64,000 bases of DNA. Source: a bacterium (lineage in GTDB: Bacteria > UBA10199 > 2-02-FULL-44-16 > JAAZCA01). A program made the translations under genes and the position numbers. Of this stretch, positions 1,320 through 47,138 are shown piece by piece (within the stretch, counting starts at the first letter, position 1; every line of letters starts with the position of its first letter). The notes under the pieces are model-generated. The model did no database searches and was not told the DNA's origin. It was given only the letters and a program-made list of their open reading frames with translations. Location of the stretch: positions 160,001 through 224,000 of the forward strand of contig CAXXGI010000001.1 of assembly GCA_963674695.2 (NCBI GenBank), given 5' to 3'.

Positions 1320-1711
1320 GATGCCGCCTCCTGCGCCTTGACGAGATGCCGCCCCGTCTCCTCCTCGATGCCGCGATAGGTCTCGATGAGCTGAGCGACG
1401 AAACCGCCGTTGATGAACTGGCCCGAGAGGTCGCGACAGTAGGCGAGCATCACGCAGAGCTCGCGACAGCAGCGCATCGCCTCGGAGAGCGAGCACTCGC
1501 CCTGCGATGCCGTCGCATGCGGCGCGAGCCCCGCCGCCAGATTTCGCGGAACGGATTTGACGAGCCGTGCGAGCGTCGCCGCCGTGTCGTCCTCGGTCTC
1601 CGCGAAGGGGACGACGTTCTTGAGCACCCGAAGCGATGCCTGATAGCTCATCGCCACCAGCTCCTCGCCCCCGTTCATATCCGCACCCGCTGTGATCGAT
1701 TGAACCGGCAT
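1316..1711 (-). CDS. Four-helix-bundle protein (23S rRNA IVP/S23-like), divergent
   Basis: KSVPRNLAAG...LSEAMRCCRELCVMLAYCRDL resembles the family pattern SxPxNIAEG...A.GS..E...L..A.DL; 131 aa. Confidence 0.55.
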   Translation of the reverse strand: MPVQSITAGADMNGGEELVAMSYQASLRVLKNVVPFAETEDDTAATLARLVKSVPRNLAAGLAPHATASQGECSLSEAMRCCRELCVMLAYCRDLSGQFINGGFVAQLIETYRGIEEETGRHLVKAQEAAS

Positions 1712-1720
1712 ATCCTCCCC

Positions 1721-4099
1721 CTAGTTTTCGAATGCGCCGATATCGTAGCCGGCGCCGTTTGGTCTGATTTCACCTTCGTGATCATCGACCACGCGCCCGA
1801 AGGCAGCGCTGCTCGCATCCGTTCCGTCATCGAGCCCCATCGCACCGACGAGACGATGGTCCGCACCGATGAGCGAGGCGGCGCCTCCCGCGTATACGAG
1901 GTTGTCCGCAACCACCGACGTGCCAAAATCGAACACGGAACTCCGATGCGGCGTACCGTCGCAGTCGCGCACAAAGACCGCGTCCCCATCATCGAATGTC
2001 GCGAGGAGATTGGAGCGCACCGCCGTGCCTAAATCGAGCGCGCCGGTGCAGACGAGCGGATAGCGATCCGGCGCAACACCCGTGAGGATCAGATTGTTGA
2101 CGAGGTGCACGGCCGCGGAACCCGCCAGCACCCCCTCGGAGCTGCCGATGCCGGCGTCGCTCGAACGTGCATCGATCGTGTCGTTGGCCAGGAGGGCTGC
2201 GCCGCCCACGATCTCGACGCCGGTGATGAAGCGCCCCGCACCACCGACGATGATCGTATTCGTCGCGATGAGATCGCCCCCCTCGACGATGAGCCCCGTG
2301 CGCGTTGCCACCACCGTCGCACCCGCACCGCCATCGATGCGCGCGCGCTCGATCCGGTGTGTCCCCCCCTGCACGCGCAAGCCCACCGATCGAAAAGCAT
2401 CCCCGTTGCCGACGATGCGCGCGCGCTCGATCGTCGCCGAGCCGGAGATGAGCTTCAGCGTCGCCGCCGCTTCGATTGCATCGAAGACACTCGCGGCGTT
2501 CTCGACCGCGACCCCGTTGAGGACGATATTGTCGGCGGTCAGTGCCAACGTCGTAGGAACATCGCTGCGCGTCAGTACGGTTTGAAAGACTGCGTTAAAG
2601 GACTGTGCCTCGCGCGAGGAAAACGGCGCATTGCCATCGCCGCCGTTGGAGAATCCGCCGAAGAGACGCGCGCCGTCGGGAAGCGTAACGGTCGAAACAT
2701 CATAGATGCCGCCGGCGACATAGACCGCCCGGCCGCTTGCCCGCGCGATCTCCACACCGCGCGCGATCGAGGCCACGGGGGCGTCCCGCGTGCCGGACGC
2801 CGCATCGCTGCCGGCTGAGAGCAACACGAATACCCCATCGGCCGCGCGCCCCACGCCCGCATCGTGATCGTCCAGATCGCATTCGACGGGCACATCGTCC
2901 GCGTCCGCATCGGTGGCCCCTTGAACGGGATTGTTCACCAACGGACAGTTGTCGTTCTCATTCGGGATGGCATCGCCGTCGGCGTCGCCGTCGCACAGAT
3001 CACCCACGCCATCGCCGTCGACATCAGATTGTCCGGCATTGGCGACATCCGCACAGTTGTCGGAGGCGTTGGCGACGCCATCGCCATCACGATCGGCGTC
3101 ACAGACATCGCCCGCTCCATCGTGATCGAGGTCGGGCTGCGCGGCATCGGCGTCCACAGGACAGATATCCTGCGCATCGCCGATGCCGTCGCCATCCGTG
3201 TCCGTCAGGAGAGGATTACTGCCAATCGCCACCTCAGTCCCATCGCCGAGGCCATCACCATCGGTGTCGGGATCCAGGCGCGCGGTCCCAAAACGCGTCT
3301 CATCGGCATCGGTCAGCCCATCGCCGTCGGCGTCGTCCTCGCAGGCATCCCCCACCCCGTCGCCATCGGTATCGGCCTGGTCGGCGTTGCTCGTCGTGGG
3401 ACAGCAATCGTCGCCGTCGAAGATGCCATCGTCATCGGTATCGGGATCGTCGACAGAGGTTCCCACGATCAATTCATCGTCGTTGGCCAGCCCATCGCCG
3501 TCGATGTCGTCGTCGCTGTTATCGCCCGTGCCATCGCCGTCGGTGTCGCGCCATTCAGTGCTCGAGGCCGGGAAGACGTCGTCGCCGTCATACACCCCGT
3601 CGCCGTCGCTGTCGGCGATGAAGGGATTCACACCATTGATCAGCTCATCGATGTTGGCCAGGCCGTCACCATCGTCGTCGGGGGAGAAGTCCCACCCATC
3701 ATCGGTTGGAGAGAAGATCGCAGCGCCATCGAGGGAGGGCACGTCGACCGAGAGTTCGGCGAGCTTGAGCGCCGCACTCAATGCCGTCTCTCTGCTGGAA
3801 GCCTCTGAAGCCTCGCCGTTCCAAAATGCGATGCGATAGATGCCGACCCTTGGACGCTCACCCAAGAGCTCCAGATCGAAGCGCCAAACATCGTCGACGA
3901 GTTCGCCATCGGCCATGGCACTCATGACCGCCCCCGTTTCGGCATCGACGAGCACGCCCTGGGTGGAGAGCGTCTCGGCGTAGGCCGCGAGTTTATCCGG
4001 ATAGGACTCGGCCACCTGCACCTGGCTCGCGCCCCCGCCGCCGCCACAGCCGGCGACCAGGATCATCATCATGCTCATGAGTATCGCTCGTCCGTTCAT
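1721..4099 (-). CDS. Lipoprotein with thrombospondin type-3 Ca-binding repeats and a C-terminal beta-helix (DUF1565/pectin-lyase-like) domain
   Basis: LVAGC lipobox; many DxDxDGxGD and DNCP...N..Q.D.D.DGVGD.C repeats; [19 protein letters not shown] motif; C-terminal YDIGAFE; GGAGGAGG RBS before ATG 4099. Confidence 0.8.
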
Positions 4100-4130
4100 A
4101 CATCCTCCTCCTGTATGTTCTTCGTTTTCC

Positions 4131-4901
4131 TCAATGCACGACGGGCAGATCGTCGAAAGAGGAGACCGCCATGGTCCCCGCCATGCCCGCCTGTGCCGCC
4201 GAAAAGAGCGGCGCCGGGCGACGCGTGCCCGCATCGATCAGACGCACCTCCACCTCGGAGGCGCGATCGGTGACGAGATCGCGCACGCGAAAGCGGTACA
4301 TCCCCGCCTCGATGACGGCCGGCGCCATGCGCCCCAGACCGGTGTTGAAATCGAGCTGAATCTCCGCAACGCTCGTTGCAGGATCGACGAGCGCGTCTGC
4401 CCCATCATCCGCGATGCGCTCGATCAGCAGCGGATGCTCCGGATCGGCAAAGAGACGAAAGATGAGCCGCGTGTTCTCCACGACCGCGCCGGCCGTGAGA
4501 TTGGTGAAGATCGGAACCGACTCGAGCGCCACATCGACCTCGTTCATGCCACCGCCTATGCGCACCCCGGGCGCCTCGCCCGCGCGGATCGTCTGTGCGT
4601 TCGCATTGCGCGCGATGACCTCGACGACGCGGTCGGAGCCTGTCGGCACCCCTTCGATCACGCCCTCGGCGGCATCGCCGGAGAATTCAGCGACAATCGG
4701 TTCTGGAATGTCCGGCGCGCTCACGCGCACCTCGAAGACTTCGATCTGACCCGGCGCCACGCTTGGATTAAAGGAACGCGCTCCCTGCACCTTCACGGCG
4801 AGTATGGCCGCCCCTTCGTCGAGCGTCTGCGAACCACCGCAGCCAGCCAGACACGCGACCACGAACACGATCAACCATTGATGCCCCATCCTCGTTCGCA
4901 T
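4131..4901 (-). CDS. Hypothetical lipoprotein
   Basis: CLAGC lipobox; GAGGAGG RBS; operonic with both neighbours. Confidence 0.65.
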
Positions 4902-10853: not shown

Positions 10854-11996
10854 ATGACGAAACGATCCTCTCCCATGCATCCCCTCGACGAAAAACGCAT
10901 CCGCTCCTTTCAGCGCCGGTTGCTGAATTGGTTCGCGCGCGAGGGGCGGGACCTGCCGTGGCGACGCACGCGCAACCCCTATCGCGTCTGGGTCTCGGAA
11001 GTGATGCTGCAGCAGACGCAGGTCGATCGCGTCATCGATTTCTACCATCGGTTTTTGAAGCGATTTCCGACGGTGACGAAGCTTGCCCGCGCCGAATGGG
11101 AGGAGGTCCTCGAATGCTGGCGCGGCCTGGGCTACTACGGCCGCGCGCGCAATATGATGAAGACCGCCCAGGCAGTGGCGATCGATCACCGCGGACGCTT
11201 TCCCCGCACCGCCGAGGCGCTGGAAGAACTCCCCGGCATCGGACCCTACACCGCGCGCTCGATCTCGGTCTTTGCCTTCGAGCAGGACCACCTGGTGCTC
11301 GATACGAACACCAGCCGCGTGATCGGACGCGTCTTCGGGTTTTGCGAGGAGAAGCTCAAGCTTCGCGACGCGCTGATGCAACACGCCGACGCCTTCGTCC
11401 CCAAGGGCAAGGCCTGGCCCTTCCACCAGGGCCTCATGGACCTGGGCGCGACGATCTGCACGGCAAAGCTGCCGCAGTGCGAATGTTGCCCAATGGCGAA
11501 TATCTGCACCTTTCTTGAGATCAGAGATACAAAACCCGAGATCCGAAACCGAAAATTGAAAACAACAGCCAAACGGATCACGTGTCACGTGTCACGTGTC
11601 ACGGAAGTCGCTGCCGCCGTCATCCATCGCGAAGGAAAGATCCTCGTGACAAATCGCCCACGCGGACACCTGAAGGGATACTGGGAATTCCCCGGGGGGA
11701 AACGGGAACGCGGCGAGGATTGGCGCCACTGCCTCAAACGCGAAATCCGCGAGGAGCTGGGCATCGAGGTCGCCGTGCGCCCACACGATTGGAAGGAGAC
11801 CTACGCCTATCCGGATCGCACCGTGCACACCCGCTTCCATCGCTGTTCGATCCTCACAGGCGACCCCACCCCACAGGAGGGGCAGCGAATTCGATGGGTG
11901 ACGCCGGAAACGCTGACCACGCTGCGCTTCCCACCCGCCGACAGAACCATCGTCAAAGCCCTCTCACAGGCCCGTTTCGTCGATCCACACCGATAG
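10854..11996 (+). CDS. mutY: A/G-specific adenine glycosylase with MutT-like NUDIX C-terminal domain
   Basis: RDLPWR, VSEVMLQQTQV, GLGYY, LPGIGPYTA, CTAKLPQCECCP FeS loop, WEFPGGK. Confidence 0.93.
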   Translation: MTKRSSPMHPLDEKRIRSFQRRLLNWFAREGRDLPWRRTRNPYRVWVSEVMLQQTQVDRVIDFYHRFLKRFPTVTKLARAEWEEVLECWRGLGYYGRARNMMKTAQAVAIDHRGRFPRTAEALEELPGIGPYTARSISVFAFEQDHLVLDTNTSRVIGRVFGFCEEKLKLRDALMQHADAFVPKGKAWPFHQGLMDLGATICTAKLPQCECCPMANICTFLEIRDTKPEIRNRKLKTTAKRITCHVSRVTEVAAAVIHREGKILVTNRPRGHLKGYWEFPGGKRERGEDWRHCLKREIREELGIEVAVRPHDWKETYAYPDRTVHTRFHRCSILTGDPTPQEGQRIRWVTPETLTTLRFPPADRTIVKALSQARFVDPHR

Positions 11997-17828: not shown

Positions 17829-17870
17829 TCACGCTTCACGTGTCACGAGTTACGTGTCACGAGTCACGGG
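17829..17870 (+). repeat. Heptamer tandem repeat (TCACGNG-like x6)
   Basis: tcacgct tcacgtg tcacgag ttacgtg tcacgag tcacggg. Confidence 0.8.
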
Positions 17871-33816: not shown

Positions 33817-34359
33817 TTAACACTCGCTTTGTTGTACTAAAGTGCCTTCTCCTGGAATTGAAATAAACTTCATTGCGTCGGCATTGACATCAAGCCTCTC
33901 ATTGTGGATGGAAATCACCTGAGCTCGCTGAATCATGTTTTCTAGTGATGAGATAATAGAATGCAACCGTTCGCACATCATCACCTTGAACGCCATCCGG
34001 ATAAGCCTATCGTTCGACTCGTCTTTATTTGCGTCCCCTTCATCATTTTCCCACCGCGACATCGTTACAGGAGAGACGCCAATCATCTCCGCAAATGCCT
34101 TACTGGTCATTCCAACTTCTTGTCGCATGAATCGAATTTCCGGACCAGTGAGCCGTTTTTTCAGACATGACAGAACGATCGCGAGGACTATATGGAGCTG
34201 CACCGGTTCGGGGATATCAACAAAACTGGCACCACACTTGGAACAGGTAAACTCAAAAACGCCATCAAGATAGACATTTCTCAACCCACTTTCAGTGTAG
34301 TGATAACTGATTTCCTTTTTCTTCATGACCTTCCCACACTCATAACATTTGGTATTCAT
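33817..34359 (-). CDS. MqsA/YgiT-type zinc-finger + HTH antitoxin
   Basis: CYECG...CSKCG zinc finger; EIRFMRQEVGMTSKAFAEMIGVSPVTMSRWE HTH; AT-rich. Confidence 0.8.
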   Translation of the reverse strand: MNTKCYECGKVMKKKEISYHYTESGLRNVYLDGVFEFTCSKCGASFVDIPEPVQLHIVLAIVLSCLKKRLTGPEIRFMRQEVGMTSKAFAEMIGVSPVTMSRWENDEGDANKDESNDRLIRMAFKVMMCERLHSIISSLENMIQRAQVISIHNERLDVNADAMKFISIPGEGTLVQQSEC

Positions 34360-34395
34360 AAAACACCTCCCATTCCCCACCCGACAAAAAAATCT

Positions 34396-34689
34396 TTATT
34401 TGCGCACGGCTGACTTTACGATAATTCTGCGTGCATCCTCATCTACGACAATAGGAACTTCAAGGGTTCTGCCATCATCGAGTTTCGTGCGCATGACACA
34501 TTCAAAACCCTTGACGTTTGCTGCCTGCATTGGCTCTCCTGTCATCAGCCCCCCACTCAGCGCTCGCATAATGTGTGGAGCCGTGAATTTACGTTCAGCC
34601 ATGCGTTCACGTGCATGCTTTGTATACGCCAAAGAACCTCTTCGCAGGAGTAACATTCGCAGTATGTGCTGGGCTTGAATCCGATCCAT
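34396..34689 (-). CDS. DUF4258-like putative RNase toxin
   Basis: YTKHARERMAERKF...ALSGG; small basic ORF directly upstream of the MqsA-like gene. Confidence 0.65.
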   Translation of the reverse strand: MDRIQAQHILRMLLLRRGSLAYTKHARERMAERKFTAPHIMRALSGGLMTGEPMQAANVKGFECVMRTKLDDGRTLEVPIVVDEDARRIIVKSAVRK

Positions 34690-34784
34690 TTGCTTGATCT
34701 CCTCTTTTCGCCGACACCACCCTGTTAACGTGGCGTTAATGCGGAGTCAAGCAGAATCTGGACGGCCCTCTCTCCTATTGTATG

Positions 34785-34811
34785 TTATCGGCCGAGTAAA
34801 GGGAAGAGTTG
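34785..34811 (-). promoter_or_regulatory. CAAC-N17-CGATAA motif (sigma28-like)
   Basis: Minus strand GCAACTCTTCCCTTTACTCGGCCGATAA. Confidence 0.55.
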
Positions 34812-35016
34812 CTTATTATTTACCTCAAGCTAATATTAACTTGAGGATAATTCTAAGGCGAGACGCTACAACCAACTGAACTCATTGAGTTTTTTGGTTC
34901 TAATGAACAACCTTCGCCTCGACCGCCACTTGGCTGCTTATGGGGATTTTGACATACAAAAAAATGGCTCGCGCCTCTTTTCTAAGCCCCACAACTATCT
35001 GATTATTATAGTATTT

Positions 35017-35037
35017 TTGAGCGGGTGATGGGAATCG
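35017..35037 (-). repeat. Duplicate of the tRNA-Gly 3' end (att-like)
   Basis: TTGAGCGGGTGATGGGAATCG matches 35585-35605 at 20/21 nt. Confidence 0.8.
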
Positions 35038-35136
35038 CCGGCTCGCGCTCACACTCCGCCGACTCGCGGTACCCACTCATCGACACTTCAGCAGTATAAA
35101 GTTCGCCTATTCGGCGAACGACTTATTCGAAGGTCG

Positions 35137-35500
35137 CGGCACTTCATCTATCGGATGCCCACCTTCGGTGGACCCAAACCGCTGAAGGTCGGCCGGCTCG
35201 CGCACACACTCCCCGGCACTTCATCTATCGGATGCCCACCTTCGGTGGACCCAAACCGCTGAAGGTCGGCCGGCTCGCGCTCACACTCGCCGGCACTTCA
35301 TCTATCAGATGCCCACCTTCGGTGTGCCCAAACCGCTGAAGGTCGGCCGGCTCGCGCACACACTCCCCGGCACTTCATCTATCGGATGCCCACCTTTGGT
35401 GGGCCCAAACCGCTGAAGGTCGGCCGGCTCGCGCACACACTCCCCGGCACTTCATCTATCGGATGCCCACCTTTGGTGGGCCCAAACCGCTGAAGGTCGG
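35137..35500. repeat. Non-coding tandem array, about 4.7 x 77 bp hairpin units
   Basis: Units start at 35137, 35214, 35291, 35368 and 35445: CGGCACTTCATCTATCGGATGCCCACCTTCGGTGGACCCAAACCGCTGAAGGTCGGCCGGCTCGCGCACACACTCCC. Confidence 0.92.
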
Positions 35501-35543
35501 AACAAGCGGCCCTTTGGGCCGCGGTTCTATTCCATCCAAACCA

Positions 35544-35588
35544 TCAATGAGAAAGGGGTCCCAAAAAACGGGACCCCTTTCTCATTGA
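35544..35588 (-). terminator. 19-bp perfect hairpin abutting the tRNA 3' end
   Basis: TCAATGAGAAAGGGGTCCC-AAAAAAC-GGGACCCCTTTCTCATTGA. Confidence 0.6.
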
Positions 35589-35658
35589 GCGGGTGAAGGG
35601 AATCGAACCCTCATAACGAGCTTGGGAAGCTCGTGTTCTACCACTGAACTACACCCGC
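35588..35658 (-). tRNA. tRNA-Gly (CCC)
   Basis: GCGGGTGTAGTTCAGTGGTAGAACACGAGCTTCCCAAGCTCGTTATGAGGGTTCGATTCCCTTCACCCGCT folds into a cloverleaf; CCA not encoded (followed by CAA). Confidence 0.95.
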
Positions 35659-35698
35659 TGATTAAAACCTATCAGGAAATGACGACTCCACTGGTTTT

Positions 35699-35795
35699 TG
35701 TCATTCCCGCGAAGGCGGGAATCTCGATTTTTAAGTACTTCGAGATTCCCGCTGGAGCCTGCCCTCGAATGATTGAATCGGGGGCGGGAATGACA
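35699..35795. repeat. CGTC-type REP dimer with inserted hairpin
   Basis: TGTCATTCCCGCGAAGGCGGGAATC...GATTCCCGCTGGAG[CCCTCGAATGATTGAATCGGGG]GCGGGAATGACA. Confidence 0.8.
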
Positions 35796-35893
35796 GCAAA
35801 AACCATTTTCCCGTCACCCGCTGATTCCGGCGCAGTACTTGCCAGAAAATCCGCCCCATTGTCAACCTTGTGCTGCACAACCGCCAGGGCTTC

Positions 35894-37660
35894 TCACGGC
35901 TGGGCGAACAGGCGCTTCGGGATGTCGGAATCGACGTAGTAGCGCTTCCAGGCGGCGACCGATAGGGGCTTGCCCGTCGACTGTTTGAGGAACGCATCCC
36001 ACGGATAGCGCTCGCCCTGCGCGAGAAAATCGGTCATGAGCCAATCGCCCAGTGTCTTCTGATCGAAATAGGACAACCCCTGCGGCTTTGATGCCCCGAT
36101 GCGTTTGGCAAAGAGTTCGGCGAACTGCACGTTGGCCACCTGGCCGATCGCATAGTTGGCATAGTAGAGCGGCGGCACGTTGGGGATATGATATTTCGCC
36201 AGGGCATCCGGGTTCTCCCAGCCTTCGGGGCGCGCGAGGAGCTGATGCGTCTCCTTGCACTGCCACCAGAGGTCGCCGATATCCTGGTCGGGGTTCTCAT
36301 AAAAGTTCTTCTCGAAACAGAAGATCGTGGAGGCCCAGCGCAGGAAGATGAGTTGATCGACATATTCGATCATCTCGACCCCTTCGGCCGCCGCGCGCGC
36401 TGTTTCGGCATCGACCCCCAAACGTGCAAACCAATCGGCGGTCTTGGTCTGCCGCTCCATGAGCATGGCAAACGCCTCGGTGAGCATCGTCGGGTCGCGC
36501 AGCAGATACGGCAGCTGGGCATTACCGATGACCGCTTCATAGTTGATGTCGTGGCCGAGCTCGTGGGCAAGCGTGGCGGCGTTGTCGGCCGTGGGGTTCT
36601 GCGGCGAACGCGGCAAATTCATCAAGAGGACCGAAGAATTCGGCTTGTTCGGATCGAGATATTCCGCAAAGGCATGCGGGTTCTTTCCCGGCTTTGGAAA
36701 GAGGCTCGATCGCTCGATGATGGGGCGCACGTCCACCCCCATGCTGCCATAGAGCTTCTCGGTCAGACCGATCACATCGCTTGCATCCTTCGTGTCATAG
36801 AAGGCATCCAGGTCGACCTGGCCGAAGATGGCGTTCGGAGCGACCTGAAAGAAGGCGTTCTGATAGTGCCAGGGTTTGAGCTCCGAAACGCCAATTCCAT
36901 ATCGCTTGGCCAGACGCGGATCGATGTATTCCCCTTTGAGTTTTTTGAACGGCTTTTCGGTTGCACGCTTTACGTCGCGATAGAAGCGCTCGAGCACCTT
37001 CATGTCCATCTGCTGCGTGACCGCAGCAAGCTCCAACGCATTGGCATATCCGAGATCACGCGCGATCTCGTTGCGCAGCGCGACGAGTTCGCGGAAATCT
37101 TTTTCGAGTATACCCCCCGACGCCTTCTGCGCCTTCCAGTTTTTCTCGAGCTCCGCGCTGTCGGTCGATTTTGCCAACACCTGCGACACATCGACGGTGG
37201 AGACCTTCTTGCCATCGATCATCGGCTGATAGTCGTTGGTCGTCTCGCCAAGTCGTTTTTCCAGTTCCACGAGTCGCTTGAGCTTGTCCGGAGCGATCTG
37301 ATTCGGAAGGTGACGCAGATAGAGCAGCTCGACCTGTCGGCGCAGGATGTCGTTCTGAAACTTCTTGCGATGCCGATAGAGCTCTTTGAGCTTCGCAAAG
37401 CGGTCGGCATCGCTATCGAGCGTGCGCATCTTGAGATCGAGCTCAGCCGCACGATCGGAATATTTCTTATCCCCCGTCGTATTGTAGACCCACCACGCCT
37501 TGCGCGCCCCGACATCGAGCGGCTCGAATTCCGCCACATATTCCTGAATGATCTGTTGGGCTTGATTCTCCATCTGCGCCACATCCTTTCCCTTCGCGTT
37601 TACGCTGCCCCCCCCCGCACCTATTCCTACCATCACCAACAGCATGATCCATTTTCGCAT
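35894..37660 (-). CDS. Secreted M2/M3-family zinc metallopeptidase
   Basis: Signal peptide; LRNEIARDLGY, HELGH (HEXXH), TEAFAMLME, YYANY. Confidence 0.85.
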   Translation of the reverse strand: MRKWIMLLVMVGIGAGGGSVNAKGKDVAQMENQAQQIIQEYVAEFEPLDVGARKAWWVYNTTGDKKYSDRAAELDLKMRTLDSDADRFAKLKELYRHRKKFQNDILRRQVELLYLRHLPNQIAPDKLKRLVELEKRLGETTNDYQPMIDGKKVSTVDVSQVLAKSTDSAELEKNWKAQKASGGILEKDFRELVALRNEIARDLGYANALELAAVTQQMDMKVLERFYRDVKRATEKPFKKLKGEYIDPRLAKRYGIGVSELKPWHYQNAFFQVAPNAIFGQVDLDAFYDTKDASDVIGLTEKLYGSMGVDVRPIIERSSLFPKPGKNPHAFAEYLDPNKPNSSVLLMNLPRSPQNPTADNAATLAHELGHDINYEAVIGNAQLPYLLRDPTMLTEAFAMLMERQTKTADWFARLGVDAETARAAAEGVEMIEYVDQLIFLRWASTIFCFEKNFYENPDQDIGDLWWQCKETHQLLARPEGWENPDALAKYHIPNVPPLYYANYAIGQVANVQFAELFAKRIGASKPQGLSYFDQKTLGDWLMTDFLAQGERYPWDAFLKQSTGKPLSVAAWKRYYVDSDIPKRLFAQP

Positions 37661-44579: not shown

Positions 44580-44633
44580 GTCCAAAAACCAGGTTATCCG
44601 ATGTGCTCACTATGATAGTATAACGGATTCAAT

Positions 44634-44703
44634 CGCCCTTCGCCCTTCGCCCTTCGCCCTTCGCCCTTCGCCCTTCGCCCTTCGCCCTTCGCCCTTCGCC
44701 CTT
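44634..44703. repeat. Perfect heptamer microsatellite (CGCCCTT)x10
   Basis: Read directly; abuts the gyrA stop codon. Confidence 0.95.
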
Positions 44704-47138
44704 CACTCCTCACCATCGTCTTCGACCACCTTTGCCACGGTGACGAGTTTTTCGTCTTTGCCCAGCGTGATCAGGCGCACGCCCTGCGTGTTGCGACCGA
44801 TCTTGGAGATCTCTTTCGCGCTCGAACGAATGATCTTGCCGCCATCGGTGACGATCATGATGTCGTCGGCGTCGGTCACCTGCAGCACGGCACAGACCGG
44901 CCCGTTGCGTTCAGCGACCTTGAGCGTGATGATGCCGGAGCCACCGCGCGACTGCACCCGATATTCGTCGAGTTCGCTGCGCTTGCCGTATCCGCGCTCG
45001 GTCACGGTGAGAATCGAGGCATCGGTCTCGAGCACCTCCATGCCGACGACCTCGTCCCCCTTGCGCAACGAAATACCGCGCACGCCACGCGCGGTGCGGC
45101 CCATGGCGCGAACATTCTTCTCATCGAAACGAATGGCCTGACCTTTCTTGGTGGTCAGAAAAATATGATGACCGCCGCTGGTCAGGCTCACGGAGATGAG
45201 GGCGTCGTCATCGTCGATGGTCGTGGCGATGATGCCGCCTGAACGCGGGTTGGCATAGGACATCAGATCGGTCTTTTTCACCACACCGTTGCGCGTGGCC
45301 ATGATGATGAACTGCCCCTCCTCGAACGCCTTCACCGACAGGATCGCTGCGATGCGATCGGTGCTGGGCATGTGGATGAGGTTGGTGATGGCCTGTCCGC
45401 GCGCAGCACGCCCCACCTGCGGAATCTCGTGAACCTTCAGCCAATAGACCCGGCCCGATGCCGTGAAGACCATCACATAGCTATGCGTCGAAGCGATAAA
45501 GAGATCGGAGACAAAGTCCTCCGAGCGCGTCGACATGCCGGTCTTGCCGCGGCCGCCGCGGCGCTGCGCGCGATAGACGCTGATCGGATTGCGCTTGATA
45601 TAGCCGCTGTGGGAGACGGTGACGACCATCTCCTCCTCCTGGATGAGATCTTCGACCGAGAGATCGTCGACCTTGCCCTGAATCTCGGTGCGCCGCGCAT
45701 CGGCGAACTTTGTGCGCACCTCGGAGAGCTCTTCGCGGATGAGTTTATAGACGAGTTTTTCATCGGCCAAAATCGCTTTCAGTTCGGCGATGAGTCCCTG
45801 AATGGCCTTGTATTCGGCGATGATCTTTTCGCGCTCAAGGCCGGTGAGGCGCTGCAAGCGCATTTCGAGAACGGCCTGCGCCTGAATCTCGGTGAACGTG
45901 AAGCGCTTGATGAGGGCGACCCGTGCAATCGATGGTTCCTTCGATTTCTTGATGAGCGCGATGACCTCGTCGATATTTTCGACGGCAATTTTGAGGCCCT
46001 CCAAGATGTGCGCACGCGCCTCCGCCTTTTTCAGCTCGAACGTGGTGCGCCGCACGACCACATCTTTGCGATGATCGAGGAAGAGCCGTAGCATCTCGAT
46101 GAGTCCCATGACCTTCGGCTGGCCGCCCACGATTGCCAAAAAGATAATACCAAACCCTGTCTTCATGGCCGTATGGGCATAGAGCTGGTTGAGCACCACG
46201 CCCGCCACGACGCCGCGTTTGAGTTCTATGACGATGCGCATGCCATCGCGATCGGATTCGTCGCGCAGATCGGAGATGCCCTCGAGTTTACCCTGTTTGA
46301 TGAGATCGGCGATGCGCTCGATGAGGCGCGACTTGTTGACCTGATAGGGAATCTCGGTGACCACGATACACTCGCGATCACCACGCGCCATGGGCTCGAT
46401 GGCCGCACGCGCTCGAATGGAAAGCTGGCCGCGCCCGGTCTCGTACGCCTTGGCGATCCCCTCGCGCCCACAGATGAACGCGCTGGTCGGAAAGTCCGGG
46501 CCGGGGATGATCCGCATGAGCTCCTTGAGCGTAATTTCAGGCTTGTCGATCATGGCGATACAACCGTCGACCACCTCACCCAGATTGTGCGGCGGAATTT
46601 TGGTGGCCATGCCCACGGCGATGCCATCGGAGCCGTTCACCAGCAAGCCCGGAACGCGGGTGGGCAGCACGGTGGGCTCCACCGTGGTGTCGTCGAAGTT
46701 CGGGATGAAGGCGACCGTCTCTTTATCGATGTCGGCCAAATATTCTTCGGCGATGGCCTTCAAACGCGCTTCGGTATAGCGGTAAGCGGCTGCTGGGTCG
46801 CCATCGATCGAACCGAAGTTTCCTTGCCCATCGATGAGCGGATAGCGAAGAGACCAACTCTGCGCCATGCGCACGAGGGTATCGTAGACCGAGGCATCGC
46901 CATGCGGATGGTATTTCTTGAGCACTTCACCCACGACACCGGCGCACTTGGAGAAGCGCTTGTTCGAAAGCAATCCTTCGCGATACATCGCATAGAGAAC
47001 GCGACGATGCGCAGGCTTGAGGCCATCGCGCACGTCAGGGATCGCGCGCCCGATGATCACGCTCATGGCGTAATCGAGATACGATCCCTTCATCTCGTCT
47101 TCGATATTGATCGGCAGAACTTCAGCGGCGTTTTTCAT
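44703..47138 (-). CDS. gyrA: DNA gyrase subunit A
   Basis: SYLDYAMSVI, YHPHGD, AAYRYTEARL catalytic Tyr, GyrA-box QRRGGRG; alternative start 47144. Confidence 0.97.
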   Translation of the reverse strand: MKNAAEVLPINIEDEMKGSYLDYAMSVIIGRAIPDVRDGLKPAHRRVLYAMYREGLLSNKRFSKCAGVVGEVLKKYHPHGDASVYDTLVRMAQSWSLRYPLIDGQGNFGSIDGDPAAAYRYTEARLKAIAEEYLADIDKETVAFIPNFDDTTVEPTVLPTRVPGLLVNGSDGIAVGMATKIPPHNLGEVVDGCIAMIDKPEITLKELMRIIPGPDFPTSAFICGREGIAKAYETGRGQLSIRARAAIEPMARGDRECIVVTEIPYQVNKSRLIERIADLIKQGKLEGISDLRDESDRDGMRIVIELKRGVVAGVVLNQLYAHTAMKTGFGIIFLAIVGGQPKVMGLIEMLRLFLDHRKDVVVRRTTFELKKAEARAHILEGLKIAVENIDEVIALIKKSKEPSIARVALIKRFTFTEIQAQAVLEMRLQRLTGLEREKIIAEYKAIQGLIAELKAILADEKLVYKLIREELSEVRTKFADARRTEIQGKVDDLSVEDLIQEEEMVVTVSHSGYIKRNPISVYRAQRRGGRGKTGMSTRSEDFVSDLFIASTHSYVMVFTASGRVYWLKVHEIPQVGRAARGQAITNLIHMPSTDRIAAILSVKAFEEGQFIIMATRNGVVKKTDLMSYANPRSGGIIATTIDDDDALISVSLTSGGHHIFLTTKKGQAIRFDEKNVRAMGRTARGVRGISLRKGDEVVGMEVLETDASILTVTERGYGKRSELDEYRVQSRGGSGIITLKVAERNGPVCAVLQVTDADDIMIVTDGGKIIRSSAKEISKIGRNTQGVRLITLGKDEKLVTVAKVVEDDGEE

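Follow-up and report, generated by a model that had tools for sequence, protein, structure and literature searches.

A tandem array of hairpin units behind tRNA-Gly(CCC) in an uncultured bacterium, and its possible relation to RtT-like tRNA trailers

The stretch of DNA analyzed here, called the window throughout, comprises 64,000 nt of a bacterial genome (GenBank assembly GCA_963674695.2, contig CAXXGI010000001.1, positions 160,001 to 224,000 of the forward strand), and the subject of this study is a tandem array of hairpin units lying behind a tRNA gene within it. ARAGORN identified tRNA-Gly(CCC), at 35587-35658 on the minus strand, as the sole tRNA in the window. Tandem Repeats Finder (TRF) reported a repeat at 35137-35500 with a period of 77 nt, 4.7 copies, 96% matches, no indels, and a score of 672, and a repeat search showed that the 3' end of tRNA-Gly (35585-35605) recurs at 35017-35037, where 20 of 21 nt are identical. 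When up to 3 mismatches were allowed, the tRNA-end sequence matched twice in the window against a chance expectation of 0.32, and no further copy was present. The open reading frames overlapping the interval were only 41-58 aa long, and no Pfam match was obtained. These analyses agree with the initial annotation, made from the letters alone, which had described about 4.7 gene-free 77-bp units between tRNA-Gly(CCC) and a 20/21 copy of its end. In the part of the window from 34000 to 36500, Rfam 15 recognized the tRNA only and assigned the array to no family. The parts of the locus, in tRNA-sense order, were as follows; R1 denotes the covariance model described below, and H0, H1, and H2 denote hairpins.

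35587..35658, minus strand: tRNA-Gly(CCC), intact, CCA not encoded (ARAGORN; Rfam tRNA model, 72.3 bits)
35545..35587, minus strand: terminator-like perfect palindrome directly after the tRNA, 18-bp stem CAAUGAGAAAGGGGUCCC / GGGACCCCUUUCUCAUUG, 7-nt loop
35523..35544, minus strand: mimic, a degenerate inverted copy of the tRNA T-arm plus acceptor 3' strand, with the ancestral GAUGG version kept
35506..35522, minus strand: hairpin H0, GCGGCCC-AAA-GGGCCGC, between GAAC and GUUC
35500..35505, minus strand: left junction UUGUUC, remnant of the T-loop 5' half (GGUUC in orthologues)
35423..35499, 35346..35422, 35269..35345, and 35192..35268, minus strand: four complete 77-nt units (TRF, pattern match, R1 78.9-79.9 bits)
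35137..35191, minus strand: fifth unit, H1 only, interrupted after GAAGUGCCG (R1 38 bits)
35058..35136, minus strand: nested B-type element, 79 nt, apical hairpin UUCGCC-GAAUA-GGCGAA (R1 88.6 bits)
35038..35057, minus strand: orphan H2 tail of the interrupted fifth unit, GGAGUGUGAGCGCGAGCCGGC (repeat family D2)
35017..35037, minus strand: copy of the tRNA-Gly 3' end, GAUUCCCAUCACCCGCUCAA, 20/21 identical, ancestral CCCAU version

The palindrome after the tRNA lies within an inverted repeat, I1, whose arms (35523-35562 and 35570-35609) are 83% complementary over 40 nt. It forms in a fold of the whole region and was not listed by a consensus terminator scan. Each complete unit consists of H1 followed by H2 and spans CGACCUUC to GAGCCGGC; neighboring units abut directly, and the two closest to the tRNA are identical. 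The B-type variant represented by the nested element was also found behind His, Gln, Ser, Glu, Arg, and Met tRNA genes. The terminal tRNA-end copy begins within the T-loop and takes in the 3' strands of the T-stem and acceptor stem together with 3 trailing bases, and it is identical to both the copy and the tRNA of a related genome (G012). A promoter-like site, TTCCCA-18-TATAAT (35034-35005, minus strand), overlaps this copy.

Short-read unitigs from three DNA runs of one study showed zero differences to the junctions at 34800-35166 and 35471-35616 and to the unit variants, and in run X1 the unitigs of the units had a depth of 24-38, compared with 12.9 for the flank. Because the unitigs match the unique junctions and the unit depth is approximately 2-3 times that of the flank, the repeat is real and is not an assembly artifact, a concern for which the initial annotation had proposed read mapping. 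As the array is not spanned by any single unitig, its exact copy number rests on the assembly.

The structure of the units was characterized by comparison among copies. A first consensus from 11 copies of this genome contained 20 base pairs, 8 of them with compensatory changes, and R1 was built from that consensus; it gathered 63 matches, 54 of them distinct, from this genome and its relatives. In the alignment of these 54 sequences, 96.9% of the cells paired, compared with 34-54% when the partners were slid, and 15 of the 20 base pairs changed on both sides, values that none of 500 shuffles attained. The alignment was fitted to R1, which favors the structure, but the margin was large nonetheless. 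In the consensus, H1 is composed of an outer CUUC/GAAG stem and an apical stem, and the GCCGG/CCGGC stem of H2 encloses a further GUG/CGC pairing. Not all copies have the apical part of H1, as short forms of 61-64 nt exist. What had been taken for a linker of about 20 nt is the second conserved hairpin, H2, and the "middle CGG stem" is absent from the consensus.

The strand on which the units fold was indicated by wobble pairs. One pair is U·G in 46 of the 54 sequences and another is G·U in 8; since these pairs would be mismatches on the opposite strand, the fold is complete only on the tRNA-sense (minus) strand. In the first two units as read on the plus strand, for example, the apical GGTGGAC yields a C·A mismatch on that strand and a U·G pair on the minus strand. 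Covariation among homologues, which had been named as a check, is present in this alignment, and together with the conserved U·G pair it bears out the original view that the units are structured and that their fold is co-oriented with the tRNA. Single units folded no better than shuffled sequence (z of +0.2 to -1.5), and the structural support therefore lies in covariation, not in folding energy.

The loops of H0 and H1 are GNRA-like tetraloops or pentaloops (GUAA, GAAA, GACA, GAAUA, and GAAGA), and CGACCUUC and AAUGNUGAAGUG are conserved unpaired bases. H0 equivalents were found at 14 loci as a GC-rich stem of 6-7 bp and varied sequence between GAAC and GUUC, with compensatory changes in 4 of 6 pairs; among random 44-nt windows of the genome, 2.7% hold such a hairpin. 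No Rfam 15 family corresponded to the motif, either in the window or in ten related loci, and weak Rfam matches to microRNA and small RNA families were discarded because they only reflect long hairpins. A −10 promoter was rejected as an explanation of the conserved UAUAAUG in H1, as position 2 of the hexamer is not conserved and the units were without a promoter in the scan, and a K-turn or box C/D was rejected for AUGAUGA, as the partner bases are not conserved.

The motif is not confined to this locus. R1 found 22 copies at 10 loci in this genome, nine of them directly downstream of a tRNA gene or tRNA fragment: Gly(CCC), two Met, His, Gln(CUG), Ser(GCU), Glu(UUC), Arg(UCU), and Asn. One of the two Met loci is on contig 3, and at the other a tRNA-Met fragment has been displaced by a 15.5-kb island; the tenth locus is a decayed copy whose right flank is tRNA-His-like. 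At every tRNA locus, the element has the same orientation as the tRNA. If the sign of local GC skew is taken to mark the replication strand, ten tRNA loci of this genome are divided 5 versus 5 (this set comprises nine motif loci and a tRNA-Ser(GGA) locus with a C-type insert, the tRNA-His-like relic being left out). A tRNA-Met locus carries a second array, of four identical 79-nt units, in which the apical hairpin is entirely different in sequence and still pairs.

Two of these loci are described in more detail here (C1, C2, and C3 denote contigs of this genome). The sole tRNA-Asn(GUU) of the genome (C1:924071-924432, minus strand; L090:572-933) is interrupted in the anticodon loop by an intron that Rfam assigns to group I (RF00028, 71.4 bits; cut-off 50), which is why ARAGORN misses it, and an H1-H2 module follows this tRNA. 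The 15.5-kb island (C1:336679-352360) is of the classical type, with a GC content of 47.2% compared with 58.8% for the contig and a tyrosine integrase at C1:336942-337397. It is bounded by tRNA-Met and a 32-nt exact copy of its 3' part, and the displaced fragment retains its H1-H2 module.

Among the 23 tRNA-linked loci, the first element starts 65-101 nt past the tRNA in 20, and its junctions fall in a T-loop sequence. To the left stands GGTTCGA, replaced by GGTTC at the Gly loci and at some of the Met loci. To the right are 15-28 nt of the locus's own tRNA, namely the 3' strands of T-stem and acceptor stem, the discriminator, and part of the trailer, in some cases with a second terminator. 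The split leaves every base of the T-loop in place at tRNA-Gly and one tRNA-Met (TTC/GATT and TTC/AAAT), and at one locus there is a complete second tRNA-Gln whose T-loop is split by the element. The motif at the left end is GTTC or TTCGA at tRNA loci and CCCTT, CTCG, CCGA, or others elsewhere. An origin of the junction by a reverse-transcriptase stop at m1A58 was rejected, as the inverted copy extends beyond position 58.

The same T-loop position also holds other inserts. Unrelated C- and D-type inserts occupy it at tRNA-Ser(GGA), Gln, His, and Glu, and two alternative families of T-loop insert were located at C1:17620-17830, C2:658770-659230, and C2:841416-841510 and in relatives (L017 and L019). 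One insert family is approximately 105 nt long and ends in AGGUCAGAACGAAGUGACAA; it is in tandem at tRNA-Gln, and it forms three 193-nt units at tRNA-Ser(GGA). Another, of approximately 68 nt, starts with CGACCGAGGCCGGGUACCC.

The distribution of the motif was then assessed in a sample of 93 genomes of the phylum, which is small and uncultured, the sample representing a single class. The motif was present in 15 of these genomes; by family, it occurred in 11 of 12 genomes of the own family, in 1 of 3 genomes of another family, and, for two families belonging to the same order as the own family, in 1 of 1 and 1 of 4. In three genomes besides this one, it lies at the tRNA-Gly(CCC) locus. Among 38 loci fetched from relatives, an intact, co-oriented upstream tRNA was found at 16 and tRNA fragments at a few more, and the tRNA-free copies of the relatives lie in the loops of other hairpins. 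In metagenome contigs, there were at least 8 real loci among the 80 matches listed, of which 6 of 8 are tRNA-linked and some are contigs of a related genome (G010). The early question of whether the unit is always next to tRNAs thus receives a divided answer: all 10 loci of this genome are tied to tRNAs, whereas the proportions in relatives and metagenomes are 16/38 and 6/8. A pattern scan of genome contigs yielded 25 stretches, with 6 loci at or above 50 bits with R1 and the remainder chance matches; a scan of viral contigs yielded 7 stretches, the best at 22.7 bits, which were taken as chance.

The age of the array was indicated by the orthologous loci. The tRNA-Gly(CCC) loci of G012 and G007 have one element each, and in both the acceptor sequence of the resident tRNA is reproduced by the 3' copy. 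The window tRNA now reads CCCUU, whereas its 3' copy and inverted mimic retain the ancestral CCCAU/GAUGG. The single-copy orthologues and the ancestral state of the copy and mimic in the window indicate that the module is old and that the five-fold repeat is a recent local expansion. Local amplification had been proposed at the outset and agrees with these orthologues; the accompanying idea of a self-contained "repeat-RNA system" had to be given up, as the array results from the lineage-specific multiplication of one component of a tRNA-trailer module that is itself larger and conserved.

Two arrangements in relatives should be recorded here. In G007 (L070-L073 and L076), a short H1-H2 stands at the center of a dispersed palindromic repeat of approximately 250 nt that occurs at no fewer than five contig ends; its terminal arms of approximately 28 nt vary between copies and are complementary within each copy. 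In G008 (L023:1380-1700, minus strand), a core is flanked by two identical 118-nt units, each consisting of a tRNA-Gly 3' part, terminator, mimic, H0, and GGTTC, and the joined ends would re-form a T-loop; only a tRNA fragment lies upstream.

The locus plan was compared with the tyrT repeats of Escherichia coli, represented in Rfam by RtT (RF00391). These repeats were reportedly described in 1978-81; to our knowledge, they and the rtT RNA have remained of unsettled function over the decades and have been treated as an enterobacterial oddity. The 178-bp repeat of E. coli tyrT/tyrV contains, in order, the tRNA end, a spacer, GGGGAAGGA (an inverted mimic), UGAGAAGC, AAGGUUCGA, a 66-nt insert, and AUCCUUCCCCCACCACCA, and the annotated end of rttR is the pseudo-CCA of the tRNA-end copy. 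In two sources, rttR is reported to be an RNA made from a single tyrT repeat unit (PMC3318445, with reference to Bosl and Kersten 1991) and is credited with a role in the processing of the tyrT transcript and probably in the stringent response (bioRxiv 10.1101/2024.07.17.603846).

The reading that we favor, and to which we give about an even chance, is that the array represents the amplified T-loop cargo of an RtT-like tRNA-trailer module that acts at the RNA level. Transcription of the module would accompany or directly follow that of the tRNA, and the RNA would fold into H0, H1, and H2; its 3' end would be set by tRNA-maturation enzymes at the tRNA-end copy, by analogy with E. coli rtT, and the outcome may be a stable noncoding RNA. 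The five-fold repeat would have arisen by recent slippage or unequal crossing-over between unit ends as a by-product, and since the orthologous tRNA-Gly loci have one unit, it would not itself be required. An RNA-level role is suggested by the strand-specific wobble pairs, the GNRA-like loops, and the conserved unpaired bases; the constant placement, the orientation following the tRNA, and the conservation at orthologous loci point in the same direction.

A number of results weigh against this reading. A strong terminator-like hairpin stands between the tRNA and the module, the promoter scan found no good promoter for the module, and 22 of the 38 relatives' loci have no intact upstream tRNA. 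Covariation and G·U pairs would likewise be expected of a single-stranded DNA intermediate, and none of the runs found to contain this DNA was an RNA run. In the Rfam RtT structure, the mimic pairs with the 3' copy to form a closing helix; across 16 loci, this helix was strong at 4-5, and its mean energy was -20.0 kcal/mol for the own partners compared with -16.3 kcal/mol for mismatched ones (sd 4.1), so that it is only modestly locus-specific. It is weakest at the window locus (-11.9 kcal/mol), where all 15 mismatched partners pair at least as well as the own 3' copy. The inverted T-arm copy noticed in the initial annotation is consequently real, but the suggested pairing with the distal tRNA copy that would enclose the array is the weakest of the 16 loci. 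The RtT model itself matched nothing in the window from 34000 to 36500 (E ≤ 10) or in the 10 loci (E ≤ 1), and its highest score anywhere in the genome was 25.7 bits, at an unrelated position and below the cut-off of 45; the E. coli locus, used as a control, scored 133-138 bits. Conversely, the cargo model R1 reached at most 12 bits on the E. coli locus. Because the RtT model finds nothing here and R1 finds nothing in E. coli, the module is RtT-like in plan but is not a member of RF00391.

H1-H2 is a covariation-supported RNA/DNA motif family new to Rfam, carried within what appear to be RtT-like tRNA trailers of an uncultured phylum. In the accessible parts of the literature searched (PMC2700814, PMC3543383, and PMC5217627 among it), the element is not described; lists of multicopy sequences from Geobacter and Pelobacter lay outside this search and may bear on the question.

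A different explanation, possible in our view but rather less than probable, is that the motif is a selfish, nonautonomous miniature DNA element inserting into hairpin loops, above all the T-loops of tRNA genes. An insertion would then survive only if the tRNA 3' end was rebuilt or duplicated along with it, repeated insertion would build head-to-tail arrays, and the hairpins would be recognition structures for a trans-acting recombinase or transposase. Much of the layout is consistent with such an element. The junction varies, falling after A58 (GGTTCGA/...) at some loci and after C56 at others (GGTTC/.../GATTCCC in Gly; GGTTC/.../AAATCC in a Met). The window itself contains one element lodged within another, the T-loop position is shared by no fewer than three cargo types unrelated to one another, and a full second tRNA-Gln copy is split there. 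The units abut head to tail without a spacer, with identity of the two nearest the T-loop side, and relatives have copies in non-tRNA hairpin loops, including the G007 repeat dispersed over at least five contig ends. In G008, the identical 118-nt units on either side of the core would re-form a T-loop if circularized. The genome also contains four Y1 (HUH) transposase-like genes of approximately 240-250 aa, a RAYT-like length (C1:749741-749992, C3:157637, C3:279738, and C3:474227). The element nevertheless has neither terminal inverted repeats nor a target duplication. The motif flanks no Y1 gene in this genome (0 matches better than E 0.1 at the 4 loci), and among relatives Y1 genes occur in 53 of 61 and the motif in 17 of 61, with no co-tracking. 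The TnpB domain was not found in the genome, and the five tyrosine recombinases all lie away from these loci. Orientation follows the tRNA and not the replication strand; no joint or excision form was seen in the three DNA runs, where only contigs were available and absence of excision is not provable; and there is no convincing copy in viral contigs, the best match being the one of 22.7 bits. Finally, the orthologous tRNA-Gly locus keeps the element across genera, which inheritance fits better than fresh insertion. Two specific mechanisms were rejected on the same grounds: a TnpB-type guide RNA, with the left flank as target motif and the right flank as guide, lacks a TnpB domain in the genome, and a RAYT/REP (repetitive extragenic palindromic) system does not fit with Y1 genes that occur almost throughout the phylum sample and lack the motif in their flanks. 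The RNA- and DNA-level readings can both be partly true, with an origin at the DNA level and persistence at the RNA level.

It is much less likely that the loci are decayed attachment-site scars of integrase-borne islands, with the tRNA copy as an old attR and the hairpins as leftover arm sequence. The direct repeat of the tRNA 3' end does start in the T-loop, which Williams is said to have recognized in 2002 as a sublocation of integrase crossover; the genome holds a classical integrase island, the one of 15.5 kb at tRNA-Met; and low-GC DNA (45.6%) with a toxin-antitoxin-like pair lies beyond the tRNA copy of the window. That low-GC DNA, however, is outside the repeat pair and not between the copies. 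The interval is gene-free, 0.15-0.6 kb long, and at a constant spacing of 65-101 nt from the tRNA, and one covarying motif stands behind at least nine tRNA genes and across genera, which unrelated scars would not yield. None of the 93 phylum genomes in the R1 search showed an interval with integrase and cargo, the intervals having been inspected by eye at the fetched loci only. Least credible of all, and close to negligible in our estimate, is an RNA antitoxin-like or CRISPR-like array serving the neighboring genes. The structured tandem repeats do lie upstream of a DUF4258 gene on the same strand, but this gene, approximately 330 nt past the tRNA copy, is followed by its own HTH/MqsA-like partner (the flanks of the other nine loci were not searched), which speaks against the antitoxin-like array considered in the initial annotation, and the units are near-identical without spacers, the whole 77-nt period being 96% identical.

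Other features were observed around these loci. The toxin-antitoxin-like pair of the window (33817-34689, minus strand) consists of a DUF4258 protein (97 aa) and an HTH_3/MqsA-like protein (187 aa) and occupies the 45.6% GC stretch. One of the Y1 genes adjoins a cluster of tRNA-Val, Arg, and Ala together with an integrase. A small repeat unit has hairpins of the type AT(T/C)CCCGC-N-GCGGG(G/A)AT, of which the genome contains 337; copies of the unit lie at 35672-35800 upstream of tRNA-Gly and inside the tRNA-Arg and tRNA-Met modules (C3:435780-435900 and C2:838740-838860). Its depth in community contigs was 1500-4800, compared with approximately 13 for the flank, and it resembles the neisserial dRS3 repeats. 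Heptamer tandem repeats are found in the window at 44633-44704, 11578-11603, 17836-17868, and other places (e.g., TCGCCCT, 10.3 copies).

Beyond the single locus, we raise a broader idea, tentatively and with more doubt than confidence: RtT of E. coli and the H1-H2 family may together form one unrecognized cross-phylum class of gene-less "permuted pseudo-tRNA" units, each made of a tRNA 3' part, trailer hairpin, inverted mimic, and T-loop 5' half. Such units would recombine at the T-loop, carry interchangeable structured-RNA cargo, and yield stable RNAs via tRNA-maturation enzymes; if this is true, its members are passengers of tRNA genes, as DNA and again as RNA. The occurrence of the RtT ground plan in an unrelated uncultured phylum, with other cargo and at many tRNA genes, suggests a general route to trailing structured RNAs or small parasites. 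The work also provides a new covariance model for an RNA motif outside Rfam and a search image for further modules, namely a tRNA-end copy that has GGTTCGA ahead of it and lies no more than 1 kb from a tRNA. The role of such modules can moreover be approached through natural variants, which differ in the type of cargo (three types) and in its multiplicity (single, triple, or five-fold).

The module was finally set beside known systems. Like the palindrome-associated transposable elements (PATEs) of IS200/IS605 and the REP/REPIN sequences, it is small and gene-less, with hairpins at its ends, no inverted terminal repeats, no target duplication, and a strand-specific structure; it differs from them in having no autonomous partner with the same ends and no replication-strand bias. 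With the attL/attR repeats of tRNA fragments, it shares a direct repeat of the tRNA 3' end that begins in the T-loop, but here there is no integrase or other gene between the repeats, the distance is a few hundred bases, and the structured core is shared among loci. The type III antitoxin ToxI also consists of tandem short structured RNA units, whereas the present array has no adjacent endoribonuclease toxin gene and is one of many tRNA-tied loci.

Compared with E. coli RtT, the module is likewise downstream of, and co-oriented with, a tRNA gene, and its unit also ends in a copy of the tRNA 3' end that begins inside the T-loop. In both systems, GGUUCGA and an insert precede this copy, so that the two pseudo T-loops are interrupted at corresponding positions. 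Upstream, each has UGAGAA(G/C)C behind an inverted mimic of the tRNA 3' end; UUCGAC is also common to the two, and the units occur in tandem. The E. coli unit reportedly gives rise to a stable RNA, the kind of product that the favored reading would predict for the H1-H2 module. The two systems also differ. The inserts are unrelated, and only here does a terminator-like hairpin follow the tRNA and is CCA not encoded. The window repeats the insert only (77 nt), whereas E. coli repeats the whole unit, although whole-unit repeats also occur elsewhere in this genome, at tRNA-Met (171 nt, three times) and tRNA-Ser (193 nt, three times). Unlike the E. coli repeats, moreover, the module described here has one cargo family that serves many different tRNAs.

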